Source: a virus
Lineage: Duplodnaviria > Caudoviricetes
DNA length: 54,142 nucleotides
Direction: 5' to 3' (one strand)
Virus record (IMG/VR): IMGVR_UViG_3300007623_000010
Location: 1 to 54,142 of that record
Of this stretch, positions 2,511 to 36,396 are shown one piece after another (position 1 is the first letter of the stretch; each line of letters begins with the position of its first letter). A program made the position numbers and the translations under genes. The notes under the pieces were generated by a model. That model saw nothing but the letters and a program-made list of their open reading frames with translations. It made no database searches and was not told the origin of the DNA.

Positions 2511-3734
2511 ATGATTGGATTGTTCTTAGGCAAAGGCCTTGAAGGTTGCGGAGTTACAAAATACGCAATCGAAATGATGACATATCTTAAACAAAGTAAT
2601 ATAGACTATAAGTTATTCATCGCTGACGACAAAAAACATTCACGCAATAAATCACATGATTTGAGTGAATTCAACGTTGGGTTCTATCGAGCAATCCCAC
2701 CAAAACGAAAAGTCGTACCCACATTCGACGATATGATTAATGAAGCGAAAGAATGCGACACGATCGTTATTCTATCGATGCCTGTTAAAGGTTATGACGA
2801 ACAAATTTTATCTGAAACTAAGCGTTTCTTTGACTCGATTAAAGATAAAAATGTCGTTGTAACTCATCATAATCATAGTTCATTATACATGAAAAAAGAG
2901 GTGTTGCTTGATGATGTATTGGAAATCACTAACACTATCTTTACTCATAGCGCAGTAAACCCTGTAAACAAATATATTATAAACAAATATCCAAACGCGA
3001 AAATTTTTAACTTGAATCCTTCAATGTTTATTGATTCATTTAAAAAGTTTTGGAAACCCGTAAGCGAAATTGATACAAGTGTCGTTAATTGGATCGGTAG
3101 AACTACACCATGGAAAGGATACGATTTAGCTGTTAATTTTCATACAGATCATTTGAAGGGTCTAGGATTTAGCACATCAATGCATGGTATGGACCGTGGT
3201 CCAGCATTTATTGGTTTTAAAGCACTTCACGCAGGAAAATTCATACTGCAAGACAAAGAAATCCAAGATAATAAAGACAATCTTTGTGAAATCTTTGGAC
3301 CGTACGTTCAAGACAAAATGCTCGATAAAATGAGTAAATCTGGTTTTGTATTACAATTGACAAAAATTAAACCAGAAGAATTACAGCAGTCTTATTCACT
3401 TGAATTTACACATATTGAGGCTTTGTCTATTGGCTCAATTCCTGTATTTAGAACTGAACATGGTAATGCAGTAATTAGTCGTAAAGATGATCGTCCAATT
3501 ATTGAACACGATACTGGAATCCTTTGGCTGAACGAAAATAATCAAGCAGAAGTAGCTGCAAAAATGAAAGAAATCGCTAATGATCCTGCATTATTTGAAG
3601 AGCATAGAACAAAAGCGTATAATTTCGCTAAAGAACAATGCGACAGTAAAGTAGTATTCGATGAATTCTTTAGAGTAGTTAAAGAAGAAAATTCAAACTT
3701 AAACAAAGCTGATACCATAGGAGATGAATGGTAA
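2511..3734 (+). CDS. agt: DNA alpha-glucosyltransferase homolog
   Basis: GLEGCGVTK, HNHS, WIGRTTPWKG, MSKSGF, SLEFTHIE, GSIPVF and HDTGILW match T4 alpha-gt along its length. Confidence 0.9.
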   Translation: MIGLFLGKGLEGCGVTKYAIEMMTYLKQSNIDYKLFIADDKKHSRNKSHDLSEFNVGFYRAIPPKRKVVPTFDDMINEAKECDTIVILSMPVKGYDEQILSETKRFFDSIKDKNVVVTHHNHSSLYMKKEVLLDDVLEITNTIFTHSAVNPVNKYIINKYPNAKIFNLNPSMFIDSFKKFWKPVSEIDTSVVNWIGRTTPWKGYDLAVNFHTDHLKGLGFSTSMHGMDRGPAFIGFKALHAGKFILQDKEIQDNKDNLCEIFGPYVQDKMLDKMSKSGFVLQLTKIKPEELQQSYSLEFTHIEALSIGSIPVFRTEHGNAVISRKDDRPIIEHDTGILWLNENNQAEVAAKMKEIANDPALFEEHRTKAYNFAKEQCDSKVVFDEFFRVVKEENSNLNKADTIGDEW

Positions 3735-4966
3735 TGAAGTGGATTACAATTATACCATTGGCAGGTGGATATCCAGTGGGTGCTCAGAAAGATCTAGGTA
3801 CTGTTCCAGAAGCAGTTATCTCTTGGCCTGCATTTAAAGCAAACGACTCACATTATCAAAACTATTTGAGAACTGAGTATAATTATCCTGAAGAAAATTT
3901 TGTTCTTTTAGATGAAGAAAATAACGTAACACAAGGTAGTACGAATTACCTTTCAAAGGACATTGATATTGTTATTAGCACACCGCCATGTGCCGGATTG
4001 TCAATGCTAAATACTGGTAATTCTAAGGATTCAGATTCCGGACGTGGCGCATGTGCTGCACAGAATGAATGGATGAAACGAGCGTCTGAATATGCATTAG
4101 ATGTCATTAAACCGAAGGTTCTAATATTTGAGAACGCGCCAGGTCTGTACACGTCAAAAGATGGCGAAGAAGTTATGGACTATTTGAATAGTGTTGCTGA
4201 AAAATTTGGTTATAGTACGTCAGCAATCATGACTAGCACTGATCTTCATGGTATTCCACAAATTCGTAAAAGAACATTCTTTTATTTTTGGAAGTCTGAA
4301 ACTTCGCCACTAATTGAATTTAGCTCAACCGATGAAGTTGCACCTTCAATTAAAGAATATCTTTCTAAGAAACCTCCTTTTAAACAAGACAACATTTATC
4401 CAAAAGAAGGTTTACAAAACGACCCATTTTTTCAGTTTGTTAAAACGAACTATGATGACTTTAGATCTGATATGAATGAATCACGTAAACGTACAATGAC
4501 TCATCATATTATTAAAAGCGGAAAATTTGATGAATTTCATGATTACATTCTTGAGAATCACTCCGGTACTCCTGCTGCAAAATTCGTTCAGCACGCTAAG
4601 AAAAAGTTAGCAGATAATAAGAACTTCTTCGACCCTTCACCTAATTACTTCGGTGATGATAGATTGAATGGAATTGTAGGGAAAACAGTTACTCATACAG
4701 TGCATCCAATTGAAGATCGTTTCTTGTCTTATGGTGAATTGCTGTATTTTATGGGTTATCCTAACACATTTGAGTTATTAGAACCTAAGAAAAATACGAA
4801 TCATATTGCTCAGAACGTCCCAGTCACCACAGGTGCATGGTCAGTGAAACAAGCTAGATTATTCATCGAAGGAAAACTGCAAGAAACTGATAAAAAATTC
4901 GTTAAGCAGAACAACATTAAGAAAACAACTGACACTTTAGTCGCAACACAAATGGAGGAGTGGTAA
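3734..4966 (+). CDS. C5-cytosine DNA methyltransferase-fold protein with atypical motif I
   Basis: PPCAGLS (motif IV), IFENAP (VI), PQIRKRTFF (VIII), HPIEDRFLSYGE..MGYP (IX), IAQNVPV (X). Motif I reads IIPLAGG instead of F-x-G-x-G. TAATG overlap with agt. Confidence 0.8.
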   Translation: MKWITIIPLAGGYPVGAQKDLGTVPEAVISWPAFKANDSHYQNYLRTEYNYPEENFVLLDEENNVTQGSTNYLSKDIDIVISTPPCAGLSMLNTGNSKDSDSGRGACAAQNEWMKRASEYALDVIKPKVLIFENAPGLYTSKDGEEVMDYLNSVAEKFGYSTSAIMTSTDLHGIPQIRKRTFFYFWKSETSPLIEFSSTDEVAPSIKEYLSKKPPFKQDNIYPKEGLQNDPFFQFVKTNYDDFRSDMNESRKRTMTHHIIKSGKFDEFHDYILENHSGTPAAKFVQHAKKKLADNKNFFDPSPNYFGDDRLNGIVGKTVTHTVHPIEDRFLSYGELLYFMGYPNTFELLEPKKNTNHIAQNVPVTTGAWSVKQARLFIEGKLQETDKKFVKQNNIKKTTDTLVATQMEEW

Positions 4967-7941: not shown

Positions 7942-9537
7942 ATGAAGAAGTTTGAAGCAACTTGGCGCGACGGTTTTAAGTTTTACGAAAGATACTACGA
8001 TACTGATCTAAACCGTTCAATGCATCGTGTAATTAATCTCCCATACGAGTGGTACGAACCATCAAGCACCGGACTTTATTCATATATTCTTGATGACTCA
8101 ATTAAGCTTGACAAAAAGCAAGGTAATGCTAAGCAAGGCCGTGATCATTACGGTTTTCTTGATCCAATGTACCGTAACATTCGTGATAATTACTGGAACA
8201 AAGATGCTTACAATCTTAAGCCACGTGTTTGGTATCTAGATATTGAAACGCGTGTTGGTACGTGTAGCACTGGTTTTCCTGTTCCCGAGAAAGCAGCAGA
8301 ACCTATATCTTTGATCCAGATCTTTGATTCTGAAACTGACGCGGTTATTATGCTTGGCGTACGTGAATGGAAACATCAGAATTCATACGATTTTGAATAC
8401 CCAGTAAAATACATCAAATGTGATGATGAAATCCATCTAATCGAAACATACCTAAAACTATTCCAAGCAATGAACCCGTTAATCATCTACGCTTGGAACG
8501 GCTTAGGATTCGATTATCCTTACATTTACAATCGTCTCAAAAATCTTGGCATGGATACTAATAAACTTAGTAACTATGGTGGTGTATCGTATTCAGAAAG
8601 CGAATTCCAAGGCCGTCTTGAATTTAAATTTAACGCTAATGGCCACTTCTATATTGATTTGATGAATGTTTACAAAAAGTTTGTATTCAGTCCTCGTCCA
8701 TCATATTCGTTGGACTCTATTGCTGAAATTGAACTAGGTGAAAACAAAGTTGATCACTCCGAGTATTCAGGGTTTGACGACTTTTACACCGGTAAATACA
8801 ACATTCCAGAAAATCCAAACGAAAAACAGTTGAACTCAGCAATCTATAAAGAAGCGATCGCTGGCAATATAGAAGAAGTAAAAGAATTAGCACACTCTGA
8901 ATTCTGTTACTACGGCTATAAAGATCCATTGCTTATTAAAAAGATCGACGACAAACAGAACTTTACAGCTCTTATGCTTATGATTGCTGAAAAAATGGGT
9001 GTACAAATTGGTGACAGTACAGGAACGGTAAAGCCGTGGTCACAGTATATCCTTAATAAATCAATGATGAATATGCAGGTAATGCCTCCACGTACGGAAA
9101 ACGATTCACCCCACGTTGTTGGCGGTTATGTACGTGATCCGAATAAAGGTAAACACAAATGGGTAATATCTGCCGACGTTAACTCAATGTATCCTCTTCT
9201 TGGAATGGTTGGTTTCAATATGAGTCCTGAAACTTATGTTGAAAAATATAACCTTCCTCCAGAACTTAGAGATATTGTACTCGCTAAGTTTAATGACCAA
9301 GATGAAGAAAAACGATTAAATATGGATGAATCAATTTGGAATGCAACTACCGAATTGTTGAACAAACATAATCTTGCACTAGGTATCAATGGTGCGGTAT
9401 TTAAGAAAGATAAGATTGGCATGGTTCCTGAAATGGTGCAAGACATCTATGATTCAAGGAAACAAGCTAAGAAAACGATGTTCAAATATCAACAGCAAAA
9501 AATCAAAATCAATGAGTTAATTAAGGAAAAATCATGA
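7942..9537 (+). CDS. 43A: Family B DNA polymerase, N-terminal part (gp43A: exonuclease and palm motif A)
   Basis: YLDIET (ExoI), WNGLGFDYPY (ExoII), SYSLD, YGYKD (ExoIII), GGYV, DVNSMYP (motif A). Ends in the fingers helix RKQAKK. Confidence 0.93.
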   Translation: MKKFEATWRDGFKFYERYYDTDLNRSMHRVINLPYEWYEPSSTGLYSYILDDSIKLDKKQGNAKQGRDHYGFLDPMYRNIRDNYWNKDAYNLKPRVWYLDIETRVGTCSTGFPVPEKAAEPISLIQIFDSETDAVIMLGVREWKHQNSYDFEYPVKYIKCDDEIHLIETYLKLFQAMNPLIIYAWNGLGFDYPYIYNRLKNLGMDTNKLSNYGGVSYSESEFQGRLEFKFNANGHFYIDLMNVYKKFVFSPRPSYSLDSIAEIELGENKVDHSEYSGFDDFYTGKYNIPENPNEKQLNSAIYKEAIAGNIEEVKELAHSEFCYYGYKDPLLIKKIDDKQNFTALMLMIAEKMGVQIGDSTGTVKPWSQYILNKSMMNMQVMPPRTENDSPHVVGGYVRDPNKGKHKWVISADVNSMYPLLGMVGFNMSPETYVEKYNLPPELRDIVLAKFNDQDEEKRLNMDESIWNATTELLNKHNLALGINGAVFKKDKIGMVPEMVQDIYDSRKQAKKTMFKYQQQKIKINELIKEKS

Positions 9538-9824
9538 AAATTGTAGAAAATGGCAAAGTAGCAGTAGCAGTTAGTTATGGCTTTGGCGCAGGATGGAGTA
9601 CATGGAACAGCGTCTCTCCATTTGATGCGCAGTTTAATCAACTCTTTTTAGAAGGTCGTCACGAAGAAGCAGTTCTATTGGCTGATCGCCACGGGCATGT
9701 TTCTGATGGAATTTTTGATATTGAGATCGTATGGGTACCAGAAGGAACTGAATTTTTCATCCGCGAAGATGACGGTGCAGAATCAATTCACTTTAAACAG
9801 GACATCCCATGGCAAGTGGCGTAA
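9534..9824 (+). CDS. Conserved phage hypothetical protein inserted between the polymerase halves
   Basis: VAVAVSYGFGAGWSTWN motif and EDDGAESI; ATGA overlap and AAGGA RBS. Confidence 0.7.
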   Translation: MKIVENGKVAVAVSYGFGAGWSTWNSVSPFDAQFNQLFLEGRHEEAVLLADRHGHVSDGIFDIEIVWVPEGTEFFIREDDGAESIHFKQDIPWQVA

Positions 9825-10027
9825 ATGAAATAACGTCTAAGACTTGCAAAACTTGTGGTAAAACGAAAGAATTAAAAAAGTTTTATCACAAGTTCAAACA
9901 TGAAAAGTTGCAGTGTTGTGCACATTGTAAAGATTGCTGTAAAGTTTTGCGTCAGCAGAAAGAAACAAAGCAAATTAAGCAAGTACTAGGTATAATATCT
10001 AATATGAATTTAGAAGGACGACTATGA
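9809..10027 (+). CDS. Zinc-finger protein, possibly a homing endonuclease remnant
   Basis: CKTCGKTKELKKFY..CKDC resembles the N-terminal Zn module of HNH/EndoVII-type homing nucleases. No nuclease domain follows. Confidence 0.5.
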   Translation: MASGVNEITSKTCKTCGKTKELKKFYHKFKHEKLQCCAHCKDCCKVLRQQKETKQIKQVLGIISNMNLEGRL

Positions 10028-11142
10028 AAGACCCATTAGATTATACAGACGATGAACTAAACGCAATGTCAGTCGACGAACTAAAACAACTTGCACAAGA
10101 AGCAGAATACAAAGAAGGACTCTTCAATACGAGACAGCTCGTTGAAAAGGTACTTATTAACTCACTTTATGGTGCTCTTGCGAATAAGTACTTTCCACTA
10201 TTCAATGAACAAATGGCAGCTGCTATCACCGGTAATGGTAGATACTTTATTCAAAAGCTAGCTAACTACATTGAGAATACACTTCAGGGTCTTCTACCGC
10301 AGGAAAAACCGTATATTGTTTATGGCGATACTGACTCAGTTTATTATCATGTTGAACCTTTCGTAGAAAAATACATTGAAAATAACCCTGGGCAAAGCAT
10401 TGATCACTATGTTACATGGGCTGATTCATTTGAACAAAAAGTAATCCAACCCGTTATTCAGAAAACAATTGACGATTTTGCTACTGAACTAAATGCATAT
10501 AACGTAGGTGCTATCGGCGCAGAACGTGAAATCATTGCTGATGCAGCAGTCTTTACAGCTAAGAAAAAGTACTATGCACGTGTTAGAGATTCAGAAGGTA
10601 CACGTTTCCCCGAGTCAGACCCTTACATTAAAGTTATGGGCCTTGAAATCGCTAAATCAAGTACTCCTACATGGGCTAAGAAAAAGCTTAAAGAAGCTAT
10701 TCCTCATATTCTTGATAAAGATGAAAATGATTTACGCGACTGGGTTAACGAAATTAAGCAAGAATTCATTACTACCAATCCAAACAATATCGCATTGATC
10801 GGTGGTGTATCCAATCTTAACTATGATCTTCAAAAAGATAAAGGTGTGCCAATTGGTTCTCGTGCTGCTTTAGTACATAATGATTATGTTCAAACTCATG
10901 GACTAGCAGAAAAGTATTCACCTATTCAAGCTGGCGATAAGTGTAAGCGTCTATTTTTACAACAACCCAATGTATTTAATAGCAACATTATTGCTTATAC
11001 AAATGATGCTTTCGTTAACGAAATTGATTGTATTGATTTTGATACAAACTTTGAAAAAGGTTTCTTATCGGCGTTGAAATTAATGGTTGAACCTTTGAAC
11101 TACGATCTTGAAAAAGAAACAGCGAATTTAGATGATTGGTAA
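10024..11142 (+). CDS. 43B: Family B DNA polymerase, C-terminal part (gp43B)
   Basis: KVLINSLYG (motif B), YGDTDS (motif C), KKKY, IKVMGLEIAKSSTP; C-terminus NLDDW. Confidence 0.93.
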   Translation: MKDPLDYTDDELNAMSVDELKQLAQEAEYKEGLFNTRQLVEKVLINSLYGALANKYFPLFNEQMAAAITGNGRYFIQKLANYIENTLQGLLPQEKPYIVYGDTDSVYYHVEPFVEKYIENNPGQSIDHYVTWADSFEQKVIQPVIQKTIDDFATELNAYNVGAIGAEREIIADAAVFTAKKKYYARVRDSEGTRFPESDPYIKVMGLEIAKSSTPTWAKKKLKEAIPHILDKDENDLRDWVNEIKQEFITTNPNNIALIGGVSNLNYDLQKDKGVPIGSRAALVHNDYVQTHGLAEKYSPIQAGDKCKRLFLQQPNVFNSNIIAYTNDAFVNEIDCIDFDTNFEKGFLSALKLMVEPLNYDLEKETANLDDW

Positions 11143-29038: not shown

Positions 29039-30346
29039 ATGAAAATCACAGAATTTTTTAACAAGGATTACGTAGATCAGGCGTCATACGATAACCTTCG
29101 CAAGATCGCATCTCTCGTAGATGGCCAGAAAAACGCATCACGTAAGATCCTTTATACGGTTCTTGAGAAAAATATTAAAGATAAAATTAAGGTATCTCAG
29201 CTCGGCTCAAAAGTAGCTGAGTTTGCTGAATATCTGCACGGTAGTTTAGATGGTGTAATTGTAAATCTAGGTCAAGATTTCCAAGGCACTAACAATATAC
29301 CGTTGTTACAGAAGAAAGGTAACTTTGGTACTCGATTTGCACAAGAAGCTTCAGCGTCAAGGTACATTTATACTTATGGAACCTCTGAATTCTTTCAACT
29401 ATTTAAGAAAGAAGATTCTGCAGTGTTGAAGCATCAATTCTTCGAAGGGCAACAGATAGAGCCAATGTTCTATGTACCATCATTGCCTATCCTTTTAATT
29501 AATGGCAGTGAAGGTGTATCATCTGGTTTTGCTCAGAAGATTCTTCCACGTGATCCTGATAAAATTAAAGGGTATATTGTTAATAAACTTAATGGGAAGG
29601 CCTCACGTTACGATTTTACTCCGTTTTATAAAGGATTCAAAGGTGTAATTGAACAAGGCGAAACAAGTAATCAGTGGCTGATCAAAGGTGTCGTCCAGAG
29701 ACAAGGTATCAACCGCGTACTTATTACAGAGGTCCCTATTGGTTATGATCTAAAGGGATACATTAATGTTCTTGACGATCTAGAAGACAAGAAGATTATT
29801 CAAGGTTATAGGGACCTTTCTGAAGATGATAACTTTAAATTCGAAGTATCAATCGCTAGTAAAGAATTAAAAACGTGGTGTGACGAAACTCTATTAGCTA
29901 AACTTAAGCTCATTAAAAAAGTTTCAGAAAACTATACTGTTATTGACGAAAATAACAAAATTCAAGTACTAGACTGTGCAAAGGATATTATTGACCACTA
30001 CATCGATGTGAAACTTGAATATGTTGCTAAACGTAAGTCGCATCAGTGTGAAATCCTTGAAACAGAAATACGATTTGACTTTAGTAAGTATCTATTCATC
30101 AAAATGATTGTTGAAGATAAGCTTATTGTGAATAATCGAAAGAAAGTCGATATCGAGGCTGACTTAAATAAGGTTGAAAATATTCTTAGCAAAGATGGAT
30201 CGTATGATTATCTATTGAATATGAATATTTTATCATTGACAAAAGAACGATTGGCAAAACTTGAAAAGGATATTGCTGATAAGAAACAAACGTTGGATGA
30301 ATTGCTTAAGAAATCTATTGAAGAAATTTGGATAGATGAGTTATAA
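29039..30346 (+). CDS. 52: Type II topoisomerase medium subunit (gp52, GyrA/ParC-like)
   Basis: DGQKNASRK, YLHG, GNFGTR, ASASRY (catalytic Tyr), P..LINGSEG, ITEVP. Confidence 0.95.
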   Translation: MKITEFFNKDYVDQASYDNLRKIASLVDGQKNASRKILYTVLEKNIKDKIKVSQLGSKVAEFAEYLHGSLDGVIVNLGQDFQGTNNIPLLQKKGNFGTRFAQEASASRYIYTYGTSEFFQLFKKEDSAVLKHQFFEGQQIEPMFYVPSLPILLINGSEGVSSGFAQKILPRDPDKIKGYIVNKLNGKASRYDFTPFYKGFKGVIEQGETSNQWLIKGVVQRQGINRVLITEVPIGYDLKGYINVLDDLEDKKIIQGYRDLSEDDNFKFEVSIASKELKTWCDETLLAKLKLIKKVSENYTVIDENNKIQVLDCAKDIIDHYIDVKLEYVAKRKSHQCEILETEIRFDFSKYLFIKMIVEDKLIVNNRKKVDIEADLNKVENILSKDGSYDYLLNMNILSLTKERLAKLEKDIADKKQTLDELLKKSIEEIWIDEL

Positions 30347-30379: not shown

Positions 30380-31036
30380 ATGTACATTACCATTGATCCG
30401 TATTATTCTAATACGTTTTACAACGAATCATTAGAAGCATTGAAAAATAATGGCGTCGAATACAAAGAATTTATTAGTGTTAAGACGCCATTTGACTGGT
30501 ATATTCAACTTGACAAAGAACCAATCATGGTTAATTATGATAAGTTGCCAGAAAAGGATGTTCGTTGGCTTGTTAATAAGGTACAGCCATTACGCCCAAA
30601 TGAAGAATATTTGTTATATCGTCGTGAACAAGACGAAGGGCCTAAAGCACTATTAAAATACATAGAAAACGAAGCGCTAAAAGAAGCAAGAACTTCTAAT
30701 TATGCTGTGTTTTTTACTATCAAAAATCGTGAAGAAGGAGAACAGATCACTAAAGATTTCCCTGGCAAAATATGGTATTTTGGAAAATACTACAAAAATA
30801 AATTCCGTGTTTGTTTATCTACAAACGAAATGATAAAGAACTATATTAACAGAGATCAAATTTTACTTGAAAAGGGCGACATAAAAGAGCCCGGTCGATT
30901 TGAAGCTGACTTCAATTGGCGAGTTTTACGAGGTCAAGATATGCTTCTTAAATTTACAGAAATGCCGTTTTTTAAAGATGGCCAATATAATAGAGTGAAA
31001 ATAAGTCCTGAAGTTTCGGCACGTTTTAATCTCTAA
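30380..31036 (+). CDS. Hypothetical late protein
   Basis: 218-aa ORF; TATAAATA at 30342-30349. Confidence 0.65.
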   Translation: MYITIDPYYSNTFYNESLEALKNNGVEYKEFISVKTPFDWYIQLDKEPIMVNYDKLPEKDVRWLVNKVQPLRPNEEYLLYRREQDEGPKALLKYIENEALKEARTSNYAVFFTIKNREEGEQITKDFPGKIWYFGKYYKNKFRVCLSTNEMIKNYINRDQILLEKGDIKEPGRFEADFNWRVLRGQDMLLKFTEMPFFKDGQYNRVKISPEVSARFNL

Positions 31037-31079
31037 TTTGTTATAATATATATTCAACAATCCACAAGAAGGAATTAAC

Positions 31080-32459
31080 TTGAGATACGAAAAGATTTAT
31101 GTTCTTGATACGAACATTATTTTAGAGGATGCCAATCAATTAATTACGATCGGGCAGGAAGGTAAGAATCTTATCGTTCTTCCGGAAACAGTAATCGATG
31201 AATTGGATGCCAAGAAATCAGGTTTTAACGAAATCAATTTCCAAGCCCGTGAGTTTGGGCGGATTCTATCAGAAGCTGAAGTAATTGGAACAAAGCGCGC
31301 TGGTAGCAAAAAAGATGTTACAGTTATGTCGTTGAAAGTTAGGGATATAATGATTGACATCATATCGTTTAAGGATTATGAGATGGTGAACGTCGATAAA
31401 TCCGTGCTAAACGATCGCAAAATTATTAAGGTTGCGCAATTCGCCACTAACTATTATAAAGATACTGAAGAAACTATTCTTCTTTCAAATGATATTATGT
31501 GCCGTACCCGTGCCATTTCATTGAATGTTAAGACAGAAGGTATTCAGCAAAACCAGCAAGTTCTTACAAATGAATACATTAAGGTTTTGGATAATGTAAA
31601 GAGTACTGATTTTAATGTAATGGAATACAAAAATATCAAAGATTATGATCCAGACTATGCGCCAGAAAACTACTGCTATCATTTAAAAGCAGATGATGGT
31701 AATGAGCAATTGGCTTATATCGTAGATGATAGAATTCACTTTGTTGATGAAGACGAACTTCGAAGAAACGTCGTTAAACCATTAAACGTTGGTCAGTTAT
31801 TCGCAATGCAAGGCATGATGGACGATCGAATTGATATTTGCGTTATTGAAGCATTGGCTGGTTCTGGTAAAACACTCCTAGCAATTGCGGCTGGCATGAA
31901 ACTAGTTCGTAAAGGTGTATATGACAAAATCATCTACATTCGTAACTCAGTTGAATCAGTCGATAAAGCTGAAGAGGTTGGATTCTTGTCTGGCAACGAC
32001 GAAAAATTCAAAATTTACAACTTTCCGCTGTACGATACTCTTGAATTTATTGCTCAAAAAGATATTAAGAATCAAAAGAACAAGGATAACCAAGAGTCAA
32101 TCGATTCGAAGATTGAAGAACTACAAAGTAAATACAATATTGAAACAATGTGGCCTGGGTCTATCCGCGGACGAACTATTTCAAACGCATTCGTTATTGT
32201 AGACGAAGTTCAAAACTTTGCTAAAACCTCTTTGCAGACGGTTCTATCTCGTATGGATCAGGAATGTAAAGTCGTATGTATCGGTTCAAACCGTCAGATT
32301 GACCACCCATATATTAACAAATATACGAACGGTCTATCAGTATTGATGAAGGCGCTTAGGACAGAACACGATAATGTGAATATGTTTGGTACGGAATTGA
32401 ATAAAGTTGTTCGTGGACGTATCACTGAATGGACAGAGAAAATCTTCGAAACAAAATAA
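31080..32459 (+). CDS. phoH: PIN-PhoH (PhoH2-type) protein
   Basis: YVLDTN..ELD..ND..SND PIN domain; AGSGKT, GFLSG, IRGRTI, VDEVQN, SR..GSNRQID. Confidence 0.9.
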   Translation: MRYEKIYVLDTNIILEDANQLITIGQEGKNLIVLPETVIDELDAKKSGFNEINFQAREFGRILSEAEVIGTKRAGSKKDVTVMSLKVRDIMIDIISFKDYEMVNVDKSVLNDRKIIKVAQFATNYYKDTEETILLSNDIMCRTRAISLNVKTEGIQQNQQVLTNEYIKVLDNVKSTDFNVMEYKNIKDYDPDYAPENYCYHLKADDGNEQLAYIVDDRIHFVDEDELRRNVVKPLNVGQLFAMQGMMDDRIDICVIEALAGSGKTLLAIAAGMKLVRKGVYDKIIYIRNSVESVDKAEEVGFLSGNDEKFKIYNFPLYDTLEFIAQKDIKNQKNKDNQESIDSKIEELQSKYNIETMWPGSIRGRTISNAFVIVDEVQNFAKTSLQTVLSRMDQECKVVCIGSNRQIDHPYINKYTNGLSVLMKALRTEHDNVNMFGTELNKVVRGRITEWTEKIFETK

Positions 32460-32480
32460 CTTAATTTTTTGTTAAGCATG

Positions 32481-32516
32481 TTGGTGGTATAATTATTATT
32501 AAGGTTATACCACCAA
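32481..32516. promoter_or_regulatory. 12-bp perfect inverted repeat overlapping the -10 box (operator-like)
   Basis: TTGGTGGTATAA-N12-TTATACCACCAA; TATAAT at 32488. Confidence 0.7.
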
Positions 32517-32536
32517 TTTAATTTTAGGATTATGAA

Positions 32537-32791
32537 ATGATTATTGAAATAAAAGATTTACCAGTAAATCGAAACGTCAAGAAAGTTACTTTTGATATTG
32601 AATTCGAAGATGGCGAAGTTAGTTCAGTAAAACCGAATCTAGAGAGCACTCAGGTGAATGAAGAGGTAGTAACTACACATACTGAAATTCCATGCACACA
32701 GGACACCGAATCAAAAGTCACTGCACCAATCATTGAAGAAAATCGTCCTAAAAAAGCAATTCCCCAAGAAATGCAGGATCTTGAATTCTAA
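32537..32791 (+). CDS. Small acidic protein, paralog of the next ORF
   Basis: N-terminal beta-rich ..FEDGEV, disordered linker, C-terminal ENRPKKAIPQEMQDLEF. Confidence 0.7.
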   Translation: MIIEIKDLPVNRNVKKVTFDIEFEDGEVSSVKPNLESTQVNEEVVTTHTEIPCTQDTESKVTAPIIEENRPKKAIPQEMQDLEF

Positions 32792-33096
32792 TGTTTGAAC
32801 TTCATATAACTTGCAGTAAGGATATCGACGAACTACATATCAATTTCAGTGACGGTACTGTTGTTACTTCAAATAATCCTACTGATAAGAAACGAAATAA
32901 AGATGAAAAGTCTAATAAAGGAACTGATTCAGAAAAACCAAAAAGTAGAAGTACTGCGCCAGCTAGAAAAGAACAAGTCTTAGATACTGACGTTGATTTT
33001 GGTGGAGTATCACAAGAAGTTGTCGAAAAACCAGTAATTGGTGGTGACGAAAGACCAGTAAAAATCGCTGAAGAATTACAAAACTTCGATTTCTAA
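32791..33096 (+). CDS. Small protein, paralog of the previous ORF
   Basis: ..FSDGTV, disordered linker, C-terminal DERPVKIAEELQNFDF; TAATG overlap. Confidence 0.7.
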   Translation: MFELHITCSKDIDELHINFSDGTVVTSNNPTDKKRNKDEKSNKGTDSEKPKSRSTAPARKEQVLDTDVDFGGVSQEVVEKPVIGGDERPVKIAEELQNFDF

Positions 33097-33157
33097 TAAA
33101 ATATTAACTAAACATTTAGTATAATTATCTTGAACTTTAAATAAAGGTAAAACAGAA

Positions 33158-34114
33158 ATGAAAAACATCCTCGGAATTGACATTGGCTTTGGAGACGTAA
33201 AGGTGACTTTCGGTACATCCGATGGTAACATCTCAAAGCAATTCAAATTCACAAGCACAATCGGAATCACTAAACGCAATGAACACGTTTCTGATTCACG
33301 TATCTATGACTATAAGGAACATAGTTACTACGTTGGTGAAAACGCTCTACATCTTCCAAGCGAAAACTTGATTGATATAACTGACTATAAAAATCTAGAG
33401 TATTATGCTCCACTATTCTTGTTCCATGTAATTAAACAGACTGGTTTTAATCCAGATATTATTGTTTCTGGTCTCTCAAAGGCACAGATCGAAAATTCTG
33501 GTCACTTTAAAGAAGGTCTAATGAACTTCACAGTGAACGGCGAAAACTTTAAATACGACGAAGTTTATATTCTTCCACAAGGTGCTGGATCGAAGCTTAC
33601 CATTGACAAATTTGGTAATAACTTCCCGCATCCTCAACAAGAATTTACTGGTACGACATCTTTCGTAGGCTGTGATATTGGTTTTAATACACTTGATATG
33701 TTCTTAGTCACTGATGGTAAAACATCGCCAAACTTGTTTGAAGGCATTGAGCGTGAAGGTGTTATGAAAATTGCTACATTGGTTGCTAAGAAAGTCAAAG
33801 AGCTTCATGGTCGCCAAATCACTCTTCACGAAGCTAAAGAAATCATTGATACAGGTATCTATAAACTTCGAGGTCAAAAACACCCGTTTAAAGATTTTGT
33901 CGACGAAGTTAAAAAATCATATCTTAAAGAACTATTAGCATTGGTTGAAAACAAATACGGTAAAATTCTGGACAAATGTGATTTTATCTCGCTAAGTGGT
34001 GGTGGCTCAACTATCTTTAAATCAACTGACGACGGGTTCATTCGTGTTCCAAAAACTAAACATGAATATTACAATTCAATCGGGTTCAAACTCTTCGGTG
34101 ATACAAAAGCATGA
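33158..34114 (+). CDS. ParM/StbA-family actin-like ATPase
   Basis: GIDIGFGDVK (phosphate 1), YYVGE, SGL, LPQGAG (connect 1), CDIGFNTLD (phosphate 2), LSGGGS (adenosine), NSIGF. Confidence 0.88.
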   Translation: MKNILGIDIGFGDVKVTFGTSDGNISKQFKFTSTIGITKRNEHVSDSRIYDYKEHSYYVGENALHLPSENLIDITDYKNLEYYAPLFLFHVIKQTGFNPDIIVSGLSKAQIENSGHFKEGLMNFTVNGENFKYDEVYILPQGAGSKLTIDKFGNNFPHPQQEFTGTTSFVGCDIGFNTLDMFLVTDGKTSPNLFEGIEREGVMKIATLVAKKVKELHGRQITLHEAKEIIDTGIYKLRGQKHPFKDFVDEVKKSYLKELLALVENKYGKILDKCDFISLSGGGSTIFKSTDDGFIRVPKTKHEYYNSIGFKLFGDTKA

Positions 34115-34202
34115 ACCCGGTAATTACCGTAGATAGGGAGGATCTCACTGTTACATACAGTGATCCTCTAACTTTGGAGACAATTAAGGTAAGGCATAAA
34201 AC

Positions 34203-34466
34203 ATGGAAGTGCCAGCGATCCAATATATGATTCATGGCAATCAAGTGTTATCCGTCATCGATATCGGTGGCGGGTATTGCGTACTTGCTGGAGATATGAT
34301 TCGCACGAATGGTTCAACGTTATTTGACTCGAAAAACGATGCAATGTACGCAAAATTGTTATATGAACTCGAAAGAGGAAAGGACCTCCGAAAATATAAG
34401 TCTTCGAAATACTACAAATACTATATCGAACGCTTGAAAAAAGAGAATCCAGAATATTTAATTTGA
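34203..34466 (+). CDS. Hypothetical protein (may extend to 34111 via a frameshift)
   Basis: From ORF track; ends ENPEYLI. Confidence 0.55.
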   Translation: MEVPAIQYMIHGNQVLSVIDIGGGYCVLAGDMIRTNGSTLFDSKNDAMYAKLLYELERGKDLRKYKSSKYYKYYIERLKKENPEYLI

Positions 34467-34474
34467 AAAAAATG

Positions 34475-34740
34475 AAAAAAAGTGTTTACTTTCTCTGAAA
34501 GCTATTGTATAATAGCTCTATCATTAAACAAATGGATAAAAATCATGACAAACACATTCACATTTGACATCGATCACAATACCACTATTGACCAACTTCT
34601 TACATACCTTTCACAAAATAATTTAACTCTAATCTCAATTAACCCTCAACCTGACCTACCACTGCCTTCAATAACTGTCAAACACAAATAAAAAAATTCA
34701 AAAAAAGTGTTTACTTTCTCTGAAAGCTATTGTATAATAG
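34475..34740 (+). repeat. 41-bp perfect direct repeat of an early promoter
   Basis: AAAAAAAGTGTTTACTTTCTCTGAAAGCTATTGTATAATAG at 34475-34515 and 34700-34740. Confidence 0.9.
34545..34691 (+). CDS. Small early protein
   Basis: MTNTFTFDIDH.. downstream of promoter copy 1. The GTG at 34482 lies inside the promoter. Confidence 0.6.
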   Translation: MTNTFTFDIDHNTTIDQLLTYLSQNNLTLISINPQPDLPLPSITVKHK

Positions 34741-34773
34741 ATCTATCAAATGAAGAAAAGAGAGATATTTGAC

Positions 34774-34983
34774 ATGAAAAACTACACTCTACGCAAAATC
34801 GAAAAGCTGGCTTCTGAATTGGCTCACCTATTAGAAGATAACAAAGCTGCTGGTTTTCATTGGAATACCAAAGAAAATGGTATCAAAGCCGAAGAGAAAT
34901 TCATCGAAGAGCTTTTGGATTTAGCATTCTCTGCCGATATGACGATCGAAACCGATTTGCAGAAAGATGAAATTTTTGGATAA
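34774..34983 (+). CDS. Small early protein
   Basis: MKNYTLRK.. after a GAGAG RBS downstream of promoter copy 2. Confidence 0.65.
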   Translation: MKNYTLRKIEKLASELAHLLEDNKAAGFHWNTKENGIKAEEKFIEELLDLAFSADMTIETDLQKDEIFG

Positions 34984-34988
34984 AAACT

Positions 34989-35045
34989 GTTTACAATCAC
35001 GACCGAAGTGATATAATAGTTCTATCAAATGAAGAAAAGAGAGAT
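34989..35045 (+). promoter_or_regulatory. Early promoter with a leader shared with the 34700 module
   Basis: GTTTAC..TATAAT, then TCTATCAAATGAAGAAAAGAGAGAT identical to 34742-34766. Confidence 0.8.
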
Positions 35046-35052
35046 TCTTGTC

Positions 35053-35460
35053 ATGATTAAACTTACTTTCAAAAACCGTTCAAGCGACGCTTACAAGTTC
35101 ACTACTACGGACGCCAACTGCCCAGAGGTTTTAGAGCTCAAAGAGACAGTTAAAGAAAGAAATGCTCAAATTCGTGAAAGGATGATGCGCTTCAACCCAA
35201 ATAAAAAGTTCATCAAACAATACCGTATTCGCATTCGTCCACGTGGTCCTCGCAACGGCAACTACCACGACACTCCAAAGGCTAATGCTACTCACTTCGA
35301 TATCTACTGCGATCAATACGAACGTCGTACTTACGCTTACCAAAAGTTTTGTGATAAAGCGTTTGCATCTCTTCTAATGGTTCAAAAAGAGTACGGACAC
35401 AATAGCGAAGTAGCTAGAGCCGCTTTGCGCGAATACCGAGATGCAGTCGATAATTACTAA
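35053..35460 (+). CDS. Basic early protein
   Basis: MIKLTFKNR..YRIRIRPRGPR..ATHFDIY. Confidence 0.7.
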   Translation: MIKLTFKNRSSDAYKFTTTDANCPEVLELKETVKERNAQIRERMMRFNPNKKFIKQYRIRIRPRGPRNGNYHDTPKANATHFDIYCDQYERRTYAYQKFCDKAFASLLMVQKEYGHNSEVARAALREYRDAVDNY

Positions 35461-35514
35461 AAATTATTGATGAAATAAATAAACGTAATAATCTTTATAA
35501 ACAAGGAGAAAAAA

Positions 35515-35691: not shown

Positions 35692-36396
35692 ATGTTTAAT
35701 AAAAATGTAACCGAAGTATTGTCACAAATCAATGGCATTACGGACTCAGTTATTCTCAAATATCCCGTTACAGTCGCGGTATCTGAGTCTCAAGATATGA
35801 TGGTGTATGCTGACATTTCTAAGCTGGACTCAGATCCCTTTGGTGATATTGGTTTGATGAATTCACTAAGTGACTTTTTGAATTTGTTTAAATTGTTCCC
35901 TGAAGATCGTAATATTGAAATCGATGGCAATACTATCAATGTATCAAGCGGAAGTACATCTTCATCGTATATTGTAGATAATGTCGCTTTGATGGACGCT
36001 TACGACAAGTCACCTGAACAGTTTGATAAAACTGAAGCCGTGCCAAGTGTCGCAAGTTTTAGTATTTCTGTAGAAGATATTAAAAATATCAAATCAGCAA
36101 CCGGCGTCTTTAAAGATCTATCAGAGGTATTGATTACTTCACAAGATGGTGACATTAAGGTATCACTTGGAGCAACGAACAAGTTCAACGCTAAAAGTAA
36201 TACGTACTCCGTGACTAAAAGTGCGACAACTTCAAAAGAATTTGAAATTAAAATTCCAGTTGATAACTTTAAAATGCTGCCAGTTTCTGATTACACTGTT
36301 GAGGTAAAATACAACTCAGCCCGTGATTCTTATCGCATTCTATTGATTAACGACTCACTTGAAGGATTTAAAGTTCTTATGAGTGTAAAAGTTTAG
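35692..36396 (+). CDS. 45: Sliding clamp (gp45-like)
   Basis: Length 234 aa; EVLSQINGITDSVIL, FGDIGL..LSDFL, DNFKMLPVSDYTVEV match the gp45 pattern; replication context. Confidence 0.8.
   Translation: MFNKNVTEVLSQINGITDSVILKYPVTVAVSESQDMMVYADISKLDSDPFGDIGLMNSLSDFLNLFKLFPEDRNIEIDGNTINVSSGSTSSSYIVDNVALMDAYDKSPEQFDKTEAVPSVASFSISVEDIKNIKSATGVFKDLSEVLITSQDGDIKVSLGATNKFNAKSNTYSVTKSATTSKEFEIKIPVDNFKMLPVSDYTVEVKYNSARDSYRILLINDSLEGFKVLMSVKV

Follow-up and report, generated by a model that had tools for sequence, protein, structure and literature searches.

A ParM-type actin and its small tailed neighbours in a T4-like phage: a partner family that travels with the actin across large phages

The IMG/VR virus record IMGVR_UViG_3300007623_000010, analysed here over its entire length of 54,142 bases (the window), carries at positions 32537-34114 three consecutive genes, two for small proteins (ORF1 and ORF2) and one for a ParM-type actin, and the family of the small proteins accompanies this actin family in phages of very different kinds. 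The explanation that we favour, and to which we would give about an even chance, is that the three genes form a conserved module in which two paralogous partners with C-terminal tails dock on filaments of the actin, and that the inverted repeat just upstream is a terminator. The module lies in a region of replication genes and has a -10-like element of its own. Its genes are:

32537 to 32791, + strand: ORF1, 84 amino acids, acidic; beta motif MIIEIKDLP..VKKVTFDIEFEDG at the N-terminus, then an acidic linker and the tail RPKKAIPQEMQDLEF.
32791 to 33096, + strand: ORF2, 101 amino acids; N-terminal beta motif MFELHITCSKDIDELHINFSDG, Lys-rich linker, C-region LDTD.DFG..SQEVV..P.I...RPVKIAEELQNFDF of about 40 conserved residues.
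33158 to 34114, + strand: ParM-type actin-fold ATPase, 318 amino acids, identified by Pfam, PHROG, alignment, AlphaFold2 model and Foldseek.

By both its fold and its motifs, the product of 33158-34114 is a ParM-type actin, as a preliminary description of this DNA had proposed. It matches Pfam ALP_N (5.3e-10) and MreB-like_C (1.7e-10), both past the family cut-offs, as well as phrog_691 ('partition protein', 2.7e-37), and a HMMER scan of 1.84 billion representative proteins returned 368 actin relatives at E <= 0.001, 41 of them at E <= 1e-30. In an alignment of 129 actin sequences there is little or no variation at D8, G10, K15, Q141, D173, G175, T178, D180, G281 and G282, with D8, G10, K15, D173, G175, T178, D180, G281 and G282 being invariant or conserved in at least 90%, i.e. 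the nucleotide-binding motif set is intact. From what is known of the fold, we take the conserved columns to be the phosphate 1, phosphate 2 and adenosine motifs. MreB-like_C is matched by 128 of the 129 aligned sequences, ALP_N by 104, Alp7A_like_C by 65 and ParM_N by 51. As a single-sequence query against the PDB, the actin found no solved structure; its profile found pCBH ParM (5.7e-37) and Ta0583 (5.1e-20), then pSK41 ParM, Alp12, CorM and R1 ParM (8.4e-12). For the AlphaFold2 model (pLDDT 96.0, pTM 0.93), Foldseek ranked Ta0583, pCBH ParM, BtParM, R1 ParM, CorM, BeeR, Alp12 and Alp7A, and behind these MreB, MamK and Hsp70 (E 1.2e-18 for Ta0583 and 1.4e-14 for 4a62, which is R1 ParM with the ParR C-terminal peptide; TM 0.65-0.79 for Ta0583, pCBH ParM, BtParM and R1 ParM). 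When it is aligned with solved ParMs by structure, only 17-20% of residues are identical. The complete actin-fold motif set and the ParM-like identity claimed earlier are thus confirmed by profile, alignment and model. The actin fold comprises two RNase-H-like domains, with subdomains IA, IB, IIA and IIB. In a FastTree phylogeny the window, the 10 included loci and P0050 and P0051 fall in one clade (support 0.978); when three single distant actins were used as queries, two gave no viral contig. Going by its family membership, the protein would form filaments.

The two small proteins, whose genes overlap by one base (TAATG, the ORF1 stop and the ORF2 start), share one build: alternating hydrophobic residues at the N-terminus that end in F-x-D-G, a low-complexity linker, and a tail R-P-x-K-x-I-x-x-E-[ML]-Q-x-[LF]-[DE]-F; beta motif, linker and tail had been read before and were found again in place. 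ORF1 ends in ...EMQDLEF and ORF2 in ...ELQNFDF; the consensus of the partner C-termini is [DNE]R-x3-[VI]-x-E-[LM]-x-[ND]-h-[DE]-[FIL]-COOH, in which hydrophobic residues fall at i, i+4 and i+7 when the sequence is read, and the beta-hairpin motif comprises about 27 residues. In the ORF2 family (25 sequences), a conserved N-motif MFxLxIECSKDIDxLxIxFSDG and a C-region LDTDxDF..QEVV..PxI....RPVKVAxELQNxDF, in which about 40 residues are conserved, are joined by a linker of 16-49 residues without conservation. In the ORF1 family (22 sequences), a linker of 12-71 residues separates MIIEIKDLPxxxKIKxIxVDIxFE from RExKEIPxEMxDxEF. An alignment across 14 diverse partners keeps the N-motif M.K[IL].IE....I..[LI].I.F and [DNE]R about 13 residues ahead of a hydrophobic C-terminus. 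In net charge both families are acidic (means of -6 and -9). The ORF1 linkers are acidic in every case; those of ORF2 are mildly basic, averaging +2 with values from -5 to +11, and often Lys-rich. The monomer model of ORF2 has strands at 14-18 and 24-28, a short helix at 94-97 and a linker with pLDDT below 50; in the ESM Atlas its own model is equally unstructured (pLDDT 0.26), with no usable matches.

Known families give little hold on these proteins. No Pfam family was found for ORF1, ORF2 or 14 diverse homologues, and the single PHROG match of ORF1 is weak (phrog_38645, 0.0087, function unknown). None of the 45 ORF2 homologues at E <= 0.01 has a Pfam domain or an informative name, and the partner profile gave nothing at E < 0.3 against the PDB and nothing below 0.016 against Pfam, and that in single members only. 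A ribbon-helix-helix or other DNA-binding domain was detected neither by Pfam nor by the PDB profile search, and the ORF2 model consists of a beta hairpin and a short terminal helix. Because the partners are acidic and without a DNA-binding domain, they are not equivalents of the centromere-binding ParR, and the ParR-like adaptor of the preliminary description finds no support. The hairpin was also considered as a mimic of the actin N-terminus and rejected, as partner and actin profiles show no similarity (E 0.5). Fused or longer forms of the partners were absent among 7999 candidates, which is weak evidence; in L019/L020 the ORF1-type frame (1717-2169) is open further upstream through a ligase-like K-x-D-G motif (seen by eye), i.e. 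a fusion or a missed start.

It is likely that ORF1 and ORF2 are paralogues, judging from their sequences. In BLASTP they find each other at E 0.023 through their tails, which are also the only part that aligns between the two family profiles (E 5.4e-4, probability 30%), and phmmer with ORF1 found one ORF2-type protein at 1.5e-3. At locus L034 a single protein combines an ORF1-like N-terminus with an ORF2-like C-terminus. The paralogy claimed earlier is therefore likely, with statistical support that is not strong.

What carries the argument for a functional module is the linkage of the three genes. An IMG/VR scan yielded 42 actin loci, 40 of them at 49-90% identity, and the 27 loci that extend 1000 nt or more upstream of the actin were used for counting (three locus pairs are identical). 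An ORF2-type gene lies upstream of the actin in 25 of these 27 and an ORF1-type gene in 24, or in 22 and 21 of the 24 distinct loci; L037 and L040 have neither type and L034 has the one hybrid. From the end of ORF2 to the actin start there are 13-138 nt in 17 loci, and in seven (L006, L010, L023, L024, L030, L031 and L041) extra genes are placed between the two, with the trio remaining linked. An uncultured contig whose actin is only 35% identical has a partner that overlaps the actin start, and a gut-derived contig (actin identity 57%) has both paralogues.

Among 50,697 phage records, tblastn found the actin in 36 (15 Campylobacter, 10 Rhizobium, 9 Vibrio, 1 Acinetobacter and 1 Ralstonia phages), and eight records of named phages were inspected. 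Vibrio phage Va1 has both paralogues, Rhizobium phage TM30 and Ralstonia phage RP13 have a single ORF2-like gene immediately upstream of the actin, and in Vibrio phages 150E35-1 and 1.031.O a single partner homologue overlaps the actin start; Vibrio phage Va2 has a protein with the tail only, and Acinetobacter phage Ab1-TPeters one partner homologue 2.4 kb upstream of the actin, while a stretch of 45 kb yielded none in Campylobacter phage CP220. By tblastn, ORF2 itself was found only in six Va1-like Vibrio phages, all with the actin, and in no other T4-like phage of the 2448 records with a gp43-type polymerase, figures that are a lower bound given the insensitivity of tblastn to proteins this short. 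The flanking genes differ among the phages that have partner and actin (Rhizobium Kleczkowskaviridae, Ralstonia RP13, and Vibrio phages with a gene for a DNA-directed RNA polymerase subunit alongside). The partner family thus goes along with this actin family in phages of widely differing kinds, and the linkage of the three genes, whose absence had been named beforehand as a reason to abandon the idea, turns out to be strongly conserved. That this neighbourhood is conserved on unrelated phage backbones, often with translational coupling, speaks for partners that act together with the actin.

How they might do so can be sketched. The actin would polymerise with ATP, and the amphipathic beta-hairpins of the partners would pair, ORF1 with ORF2 in this phage and as homodimers in the phages with a single copy. 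The short amphipathic hairpin does not make a stable domain by itself, and the build of the proteins fits a pairing module with two flexible docking peptides, i.e. a two-tailed adaptor or regulator that hairpin pairing would create. By analogy with the ParR peptide on ParM (PDB 4a62) and with AlpA-AlpC, the C-terminal peptides would dock on the actin, and docked partners might nucleate, cap or otherwise bind the ends of filaments, or tether them. Candidate cargoes are the replication or packaging complex, the membrane, or a part of the virion. In two related loci (L035 and L036) the tails are both changed to ..N/H-G/H-K-F/Y, and their actins differ at 33 lineage-specific columns (with K188 and K212 lost), which are too many to interpret; mutual information between the last and the -3 residue of the tail and columns of actin or clamp (24 and 22 sequences) gave no clear signal.

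Several observations weigh against tail docking on actin filaments. A hydrophobic-acidic C-terminus past a variable linker is also the signature of proteins that bind the T4 sliding clamp (PMC2988020), and in distant phages the N-terminal motif is better kept than the tail (in the 14-member alignment), which would fit the N-terminal end, not the tail, contacting actin. The evidence for ORF1/ORF2 paralogy is, as given above, statistically modest. Finally, the relatives in Campylobacter phages (54% actin identity, the same order from PhoH to actin) have unrelated genes in the partner position and, within 45 kb, no partner homologue was found; L037, L040 and L059 are without partners too. The actin can therefore exist without them. 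In the partner position CP220 encodes gp064 and gp065 (L002 1957-2933; L057 20929-21905), unrelated proteins of which gp065 has a basic, Lys/Thr-rich tail, and these may be non-homologous replacements. Where the partners are missing in L040 and L059, a 148-residue protein that looks like a ParB nuclease by eye is encoded about 1 kb upstream of the actin (1086-1532 and 579-1025, respectively).

The stretch around the module holds the following further features:

31080 to 32459, + strand: PIN-PhoH protein (Pfam/PHROG), the upstream neighbour.
32480 to 32517, + strand: inverted repeat or RNA hairpin, with arms at 32481-32492 and 32505-32516 and 15 RNA pairs, followed by TTTAATTTTAGG.
32488 to 32493, + strand: TATAAT hexamer with TGG before it (extended -10-like), inside the left arm, read by eye.
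33120 to 33125, + strand: a further TATAAT hexamer, placed 32 nt upstream of the actin start, with GTATAATTAT common to it and the site upstream of ORF1.
35692 to 36396, + strand: gp45-type sliding clamp, the downstream neighbour and a candidate alternative target of the tails.

As had been described, the arms (TTGGTGGTATAA and TTATACCACCAA) form a perfect 12-bp repeat, here with a 12-bp spacer, and a -10 hexamer lies inside it. No -35 match was found for this hexamer; TATAAT, at times with an upstream TG, recurs by eye ahead of ORF1 in several relatives. As RNA, the repeat folds into a hairpin of -21.3 kcal/mol (z -4.5; 0 of 200 shuffles fold as well) with the features of a terminator that were tested for, namely a 15-pair stem, an 8-nt loop, a T-rich tail (TTAATTTTAG) and a start 21 nt past the PhoH stop, and it is the only terminator-like site reported within 31000-35500. 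Its strength as a terminator is uncertain, because the stem has only four G-C pairs and the T-run is interrupted. None of the 23 relatives examined has the repeat upstream of ORF1. In four of them (L043, L007, L010 and L036) hairpins unrelated to it in sequence are found in the 110 nt upstream of ORF1, and in L043, L007 and L010 a T-run comes after the hairpin. In these three the PhoH gene ends in or just ahead of the hairpin stretch; in L036 another gene precedes ORF1. Most likely, then, the inverted repeat is the intrinsic terminator of PhoH, with the -10 hexamer overlapping its left arm.

The surroundings are those of a T4-like phage. The record has an estimated completeness of 28% and a G+C content of 35%, and the sequencing runs listed for it are three of freshwater metagenome DNA, which may stem from the source sample, and none of RNA. 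PHROG matches to 49 larger ORFs of the window revealed T4-type replication and morphogenesis genes: clamp loader subunits, a gp43 polymerase in two parts, a gp41-type helicase, the large terminase (TerL) and a sheath-related protein, and further topoisomerase II subunits, a gp32-type single-stranded DNA-binding protein, primase, gp46/47-type exonucleases, UvsW- and Dda-like helicases and a ligase. No lysogeny genes were among these matches. The lytic, T4-like phage assumed earlier is thereby borne out, as a myovirus of lytic type, by clamp loader, split gp43, gp41, gp45, gp32, primase, TerL and sheath genes. The module sits between the PIN-PhoH gene and the gp45-type clamp gene, the latter 1.6 kb downstream of the actin; among the fetched loci there are 35 downstream clamp ORFs, and the order from PhoH to actin is also that of the Vibrio phage Va1 locus and of Campylobacter phage CP220.

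In the preliminary description the repeat had been read as operator-like. The ParMRC-like model that goes with this has a heteromeric, ParR-like ORF1/ORF2 adaptor bind it, both as operator and as centromere, regulate its own operon and connect phage DNA to the filaments. A perfect 12-bp repeat that overlaps a -10 hexamer just upstream of the operon, next to an actin of the ParM type, would suit such a model, as would the often Lys-rich ORF2 linker (mean net +2, up to +11) and the precedent of AlpAC from the CGP3 prophage, where the adaptor gene precedes the actin gene and the adaptor sites lie in the promoter region (PMC4446434). Yet it is one site and not an iteron array, without a second exact copy anywhere in the 54-kb record; its score is that of a terminator, and both proteins are acidic and without a detectable DNA-binding domain. 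Its position after PhoH, the T-run, the lack of conservation in 23 relatives and the unrelated hairpins in some of these argue against an operator, so that this role, and autoregulation with it, is not supported, and the ParMRC-like model as a whole seems very improbable. Another alternative is that the small proteins are merely neighbours of the actin, i.e. early phage proteins such as host-takeover factors or inhibitors with acidic tails, the adjacency being an order inherited in one lineage. One clade does supply most of the loci (actin identity 62-89%), ORF2 and actin can be separated by inserted genes, and some actin-bearing relatives lack the partners; against this, dissimilar phages with differing flanks still have the genes side by side, often so that stop and start overlap, down to 35% actin identity, and tblastn did not find the partners in phages without the actin. 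We regard mere adjacency as unlikely.

The remaining alternative is that the tails bind the gp45-type sliding clamp, either tethering filaments to clamp-loaded DNA (with the N-terminal hairpin on the actin) or acting apart from the actin. In T4, gp43, gp33 and gp55 bind gp45 via hydrophobic-acidic C-termini on variable linkers (PMC2988020), and ORF1 and ORF2 have the same layout, with linkers of 12-71 and 16-49 residues. The polymerase of the window ends in ...ANLDDW, that of Va1 in ...SLDDW and a methyltransferase-like protein in ...QMEEW; the clamp gene lies downstream of the actin in the window and in the fetched loci too, and the best-conserved segment of the partners is the N-terminal motif. 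The partners, however, track actin and not clamps, being undetected in other T4-like records that have polymerase and clamp without actin, and their tail E[LM]x[ND]h[DE][FIL] is unlike the polymerase ending [NS]LDDW in the same genomes. There are also partner homologues in other phage types without a detected gp45-like clamp, in a search that had no positive control: in five other partner-bearing phages neither phrog_223 nor alignment A4 found a gp45-type clamp, and the controls were equally silent. Taken together, clamp binding appears an unlikely destination for the tails. A combined version, namely a centromere-free phage cytoskeleton in which a hairpin heterodimer with two tails couples ParM-like filaments to a protein handle and not to a DNA sequence, ideally to the sliding clamp loaded on replicating phage DNA, is in our estimate quite unlikely. 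A complex prediction with actin, clamp and full-length ORF2, run without controls, scored 0.30 against a mark of 0.32 (runs 0.30, 0.35 and 0.15), which speaks neither for nor against any of these readings. Docking of the tails on the actin remains the explanation that we favour.

Compared with known systems, the module resembles ParMRC of plasmid R1 in the ParM-type fold of the actin and in having, in the operon, a gene for a small partner whose conserved C-terminal peptide is preceded by a flexible region. In contrast to ParMRC, the partner genes lie upstream of the actin rather than downstream, their products have no ribbon-helix-helix or other DNA-binding domain, are acidic and exist as a duplicated pair of paralogues, an iterated centromere is absent (only one inverted repeat, not conserved in 23 relatives), and the carrier is a lytic T4-like phage instead of a plasmid. 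The system would thus work like a type II partition system without being one: two defining features of ParMRC fail, and because it has neither a DNA-binding adaptor nor an iterated centromere it was not filed as such. The closest solved relatives of the actin, pCBH ParM (6ixw/6izr) and Ta0583 (2fsj), with TM 0.75-0.76 and about 17-20% identity, are a plasmid protein and an archaeal chromosomal protein, respectively, whereas the actin described here belongs to a phage. We know of no partner with a beta-hairpin and a tail for either of them.

A nearer parallel in gene order is AlpC/AlpA/alpS of CGP3 in Corynebacterium glutamicum, a phage-borne actin with a co-transcribed adaptor gene upstream, which is described as an early gene tied to phage DNA replication and whose AlpA binds 24 alpS repeats in the promoter region (PMC4446434). 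The upstream, co-transcribed adaptor gene has its counterpart here in the gene order and the one-base overlap of ORF1 and ORF2; co-transcription of ORF2 and actin is uncertain because of the second TATAAT at 33120-33125. Repeats of the alpS type are not present here, CGP3 is a cryptic temperate prophage of an actinobacterium, and the likeness drawn here concerns the gene order. With the clamp epitopes of T4 gp43, gp33 and gp55 (PMC2988020), the partners share the hydrophobic-acidic C-terminus after a variable linker; they differ in a tail motif unlike the polymerase C-terminus of their own genome and in following actin, not clamp. PhuZ of the nucleus-forming jumbo phages is likewise a phage-encoded cytoskeletal polymer in lytic infection (PMC4244570) and differs in its tubulin fold, in having no known adaptor pair and in belonging to another phage lineage.

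Some further observations concern the rest of the record. The gp43-type polymerase is broken into two ORFs, 7942-9537 and 10024-11142, with a 96-residue ORF of no known family (9534-9824) between them, and the closest phage relatives of its C-terminal part are Va1-like Vibrio phages and CP220-like Campylobacter phages. C-termini of the hydrophobic-acidic-aromatic kind occur at 10024-11142 (...ANLDDW), 3728-4966 (...QMEEW) and 29039-30346 (...WIDEL), all in DNA-acting proteins, and may be the lineage's own clamp-binding epitopes. Genes of the thymidylate synthase family (1292-1963), for an alpha-glucosyltransferase-like protein (2511-3734) and for a DNA-methyltransferase-like protein (3728-4966) are consecutive, which hints at modified phage DNA. 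Directly behind the actin, an ORF of 39 amino acids (34111-34230) overlaps the actin stop codon with its ATGA start. Small, unrelated-looking ORFs near the actin share the ending P-E-x-[FL]-[ILF] (e.g. ...NPEYLI, ...HPEYAI, ...YPEKFI and ...IPELLI), found in the window at 34203-34466 and in L001 (4301-4603), L030 (984-1202), L028 (1941-2198 and 867-1310) and L041 (1289-2155); this ending may be another common C-terminal docking motif.

The phage cytoskeletons known so far are the PhuZ tubulin of nucleus-forming jumbo phages and the actin AlpC of a cryptic prophage. What is new here is a ParM-type actin that, together with a dedicated and unnamed partner family, makes up a conserved module in lytic T4-like and other large phages, its relatives coming from freshwater, gut-derived and other metagenome contigs and from isolated Vibrio, Rhizobium and Ralstonia phages. 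In public records the actin is labelled 'MreB-like ATPase' or 'partition protein' and the partners 'hypothetical', and the literature, subscription journals and supplements aside, yielded no paper on either the actin family or the partners. With Vibrio phages Va1, phiKT1024 and pv27, cultured relatives exist in which the module is directly testable. If the favoured explanation is true, the combination of a hairpin for pairing, a disordered linker and a peptide for docking, without a DNA-binding domain, would be a new way of linking bacterial actin filaments to cargo. Should the quite unlikely version with a protein as handle be true, a lytic T4-like phage would be using its own actin to organise its centres of replication and packaging or to move them, which would be an actin counterpart of PhuZ in a group of phages that does not form a phage nucleus.

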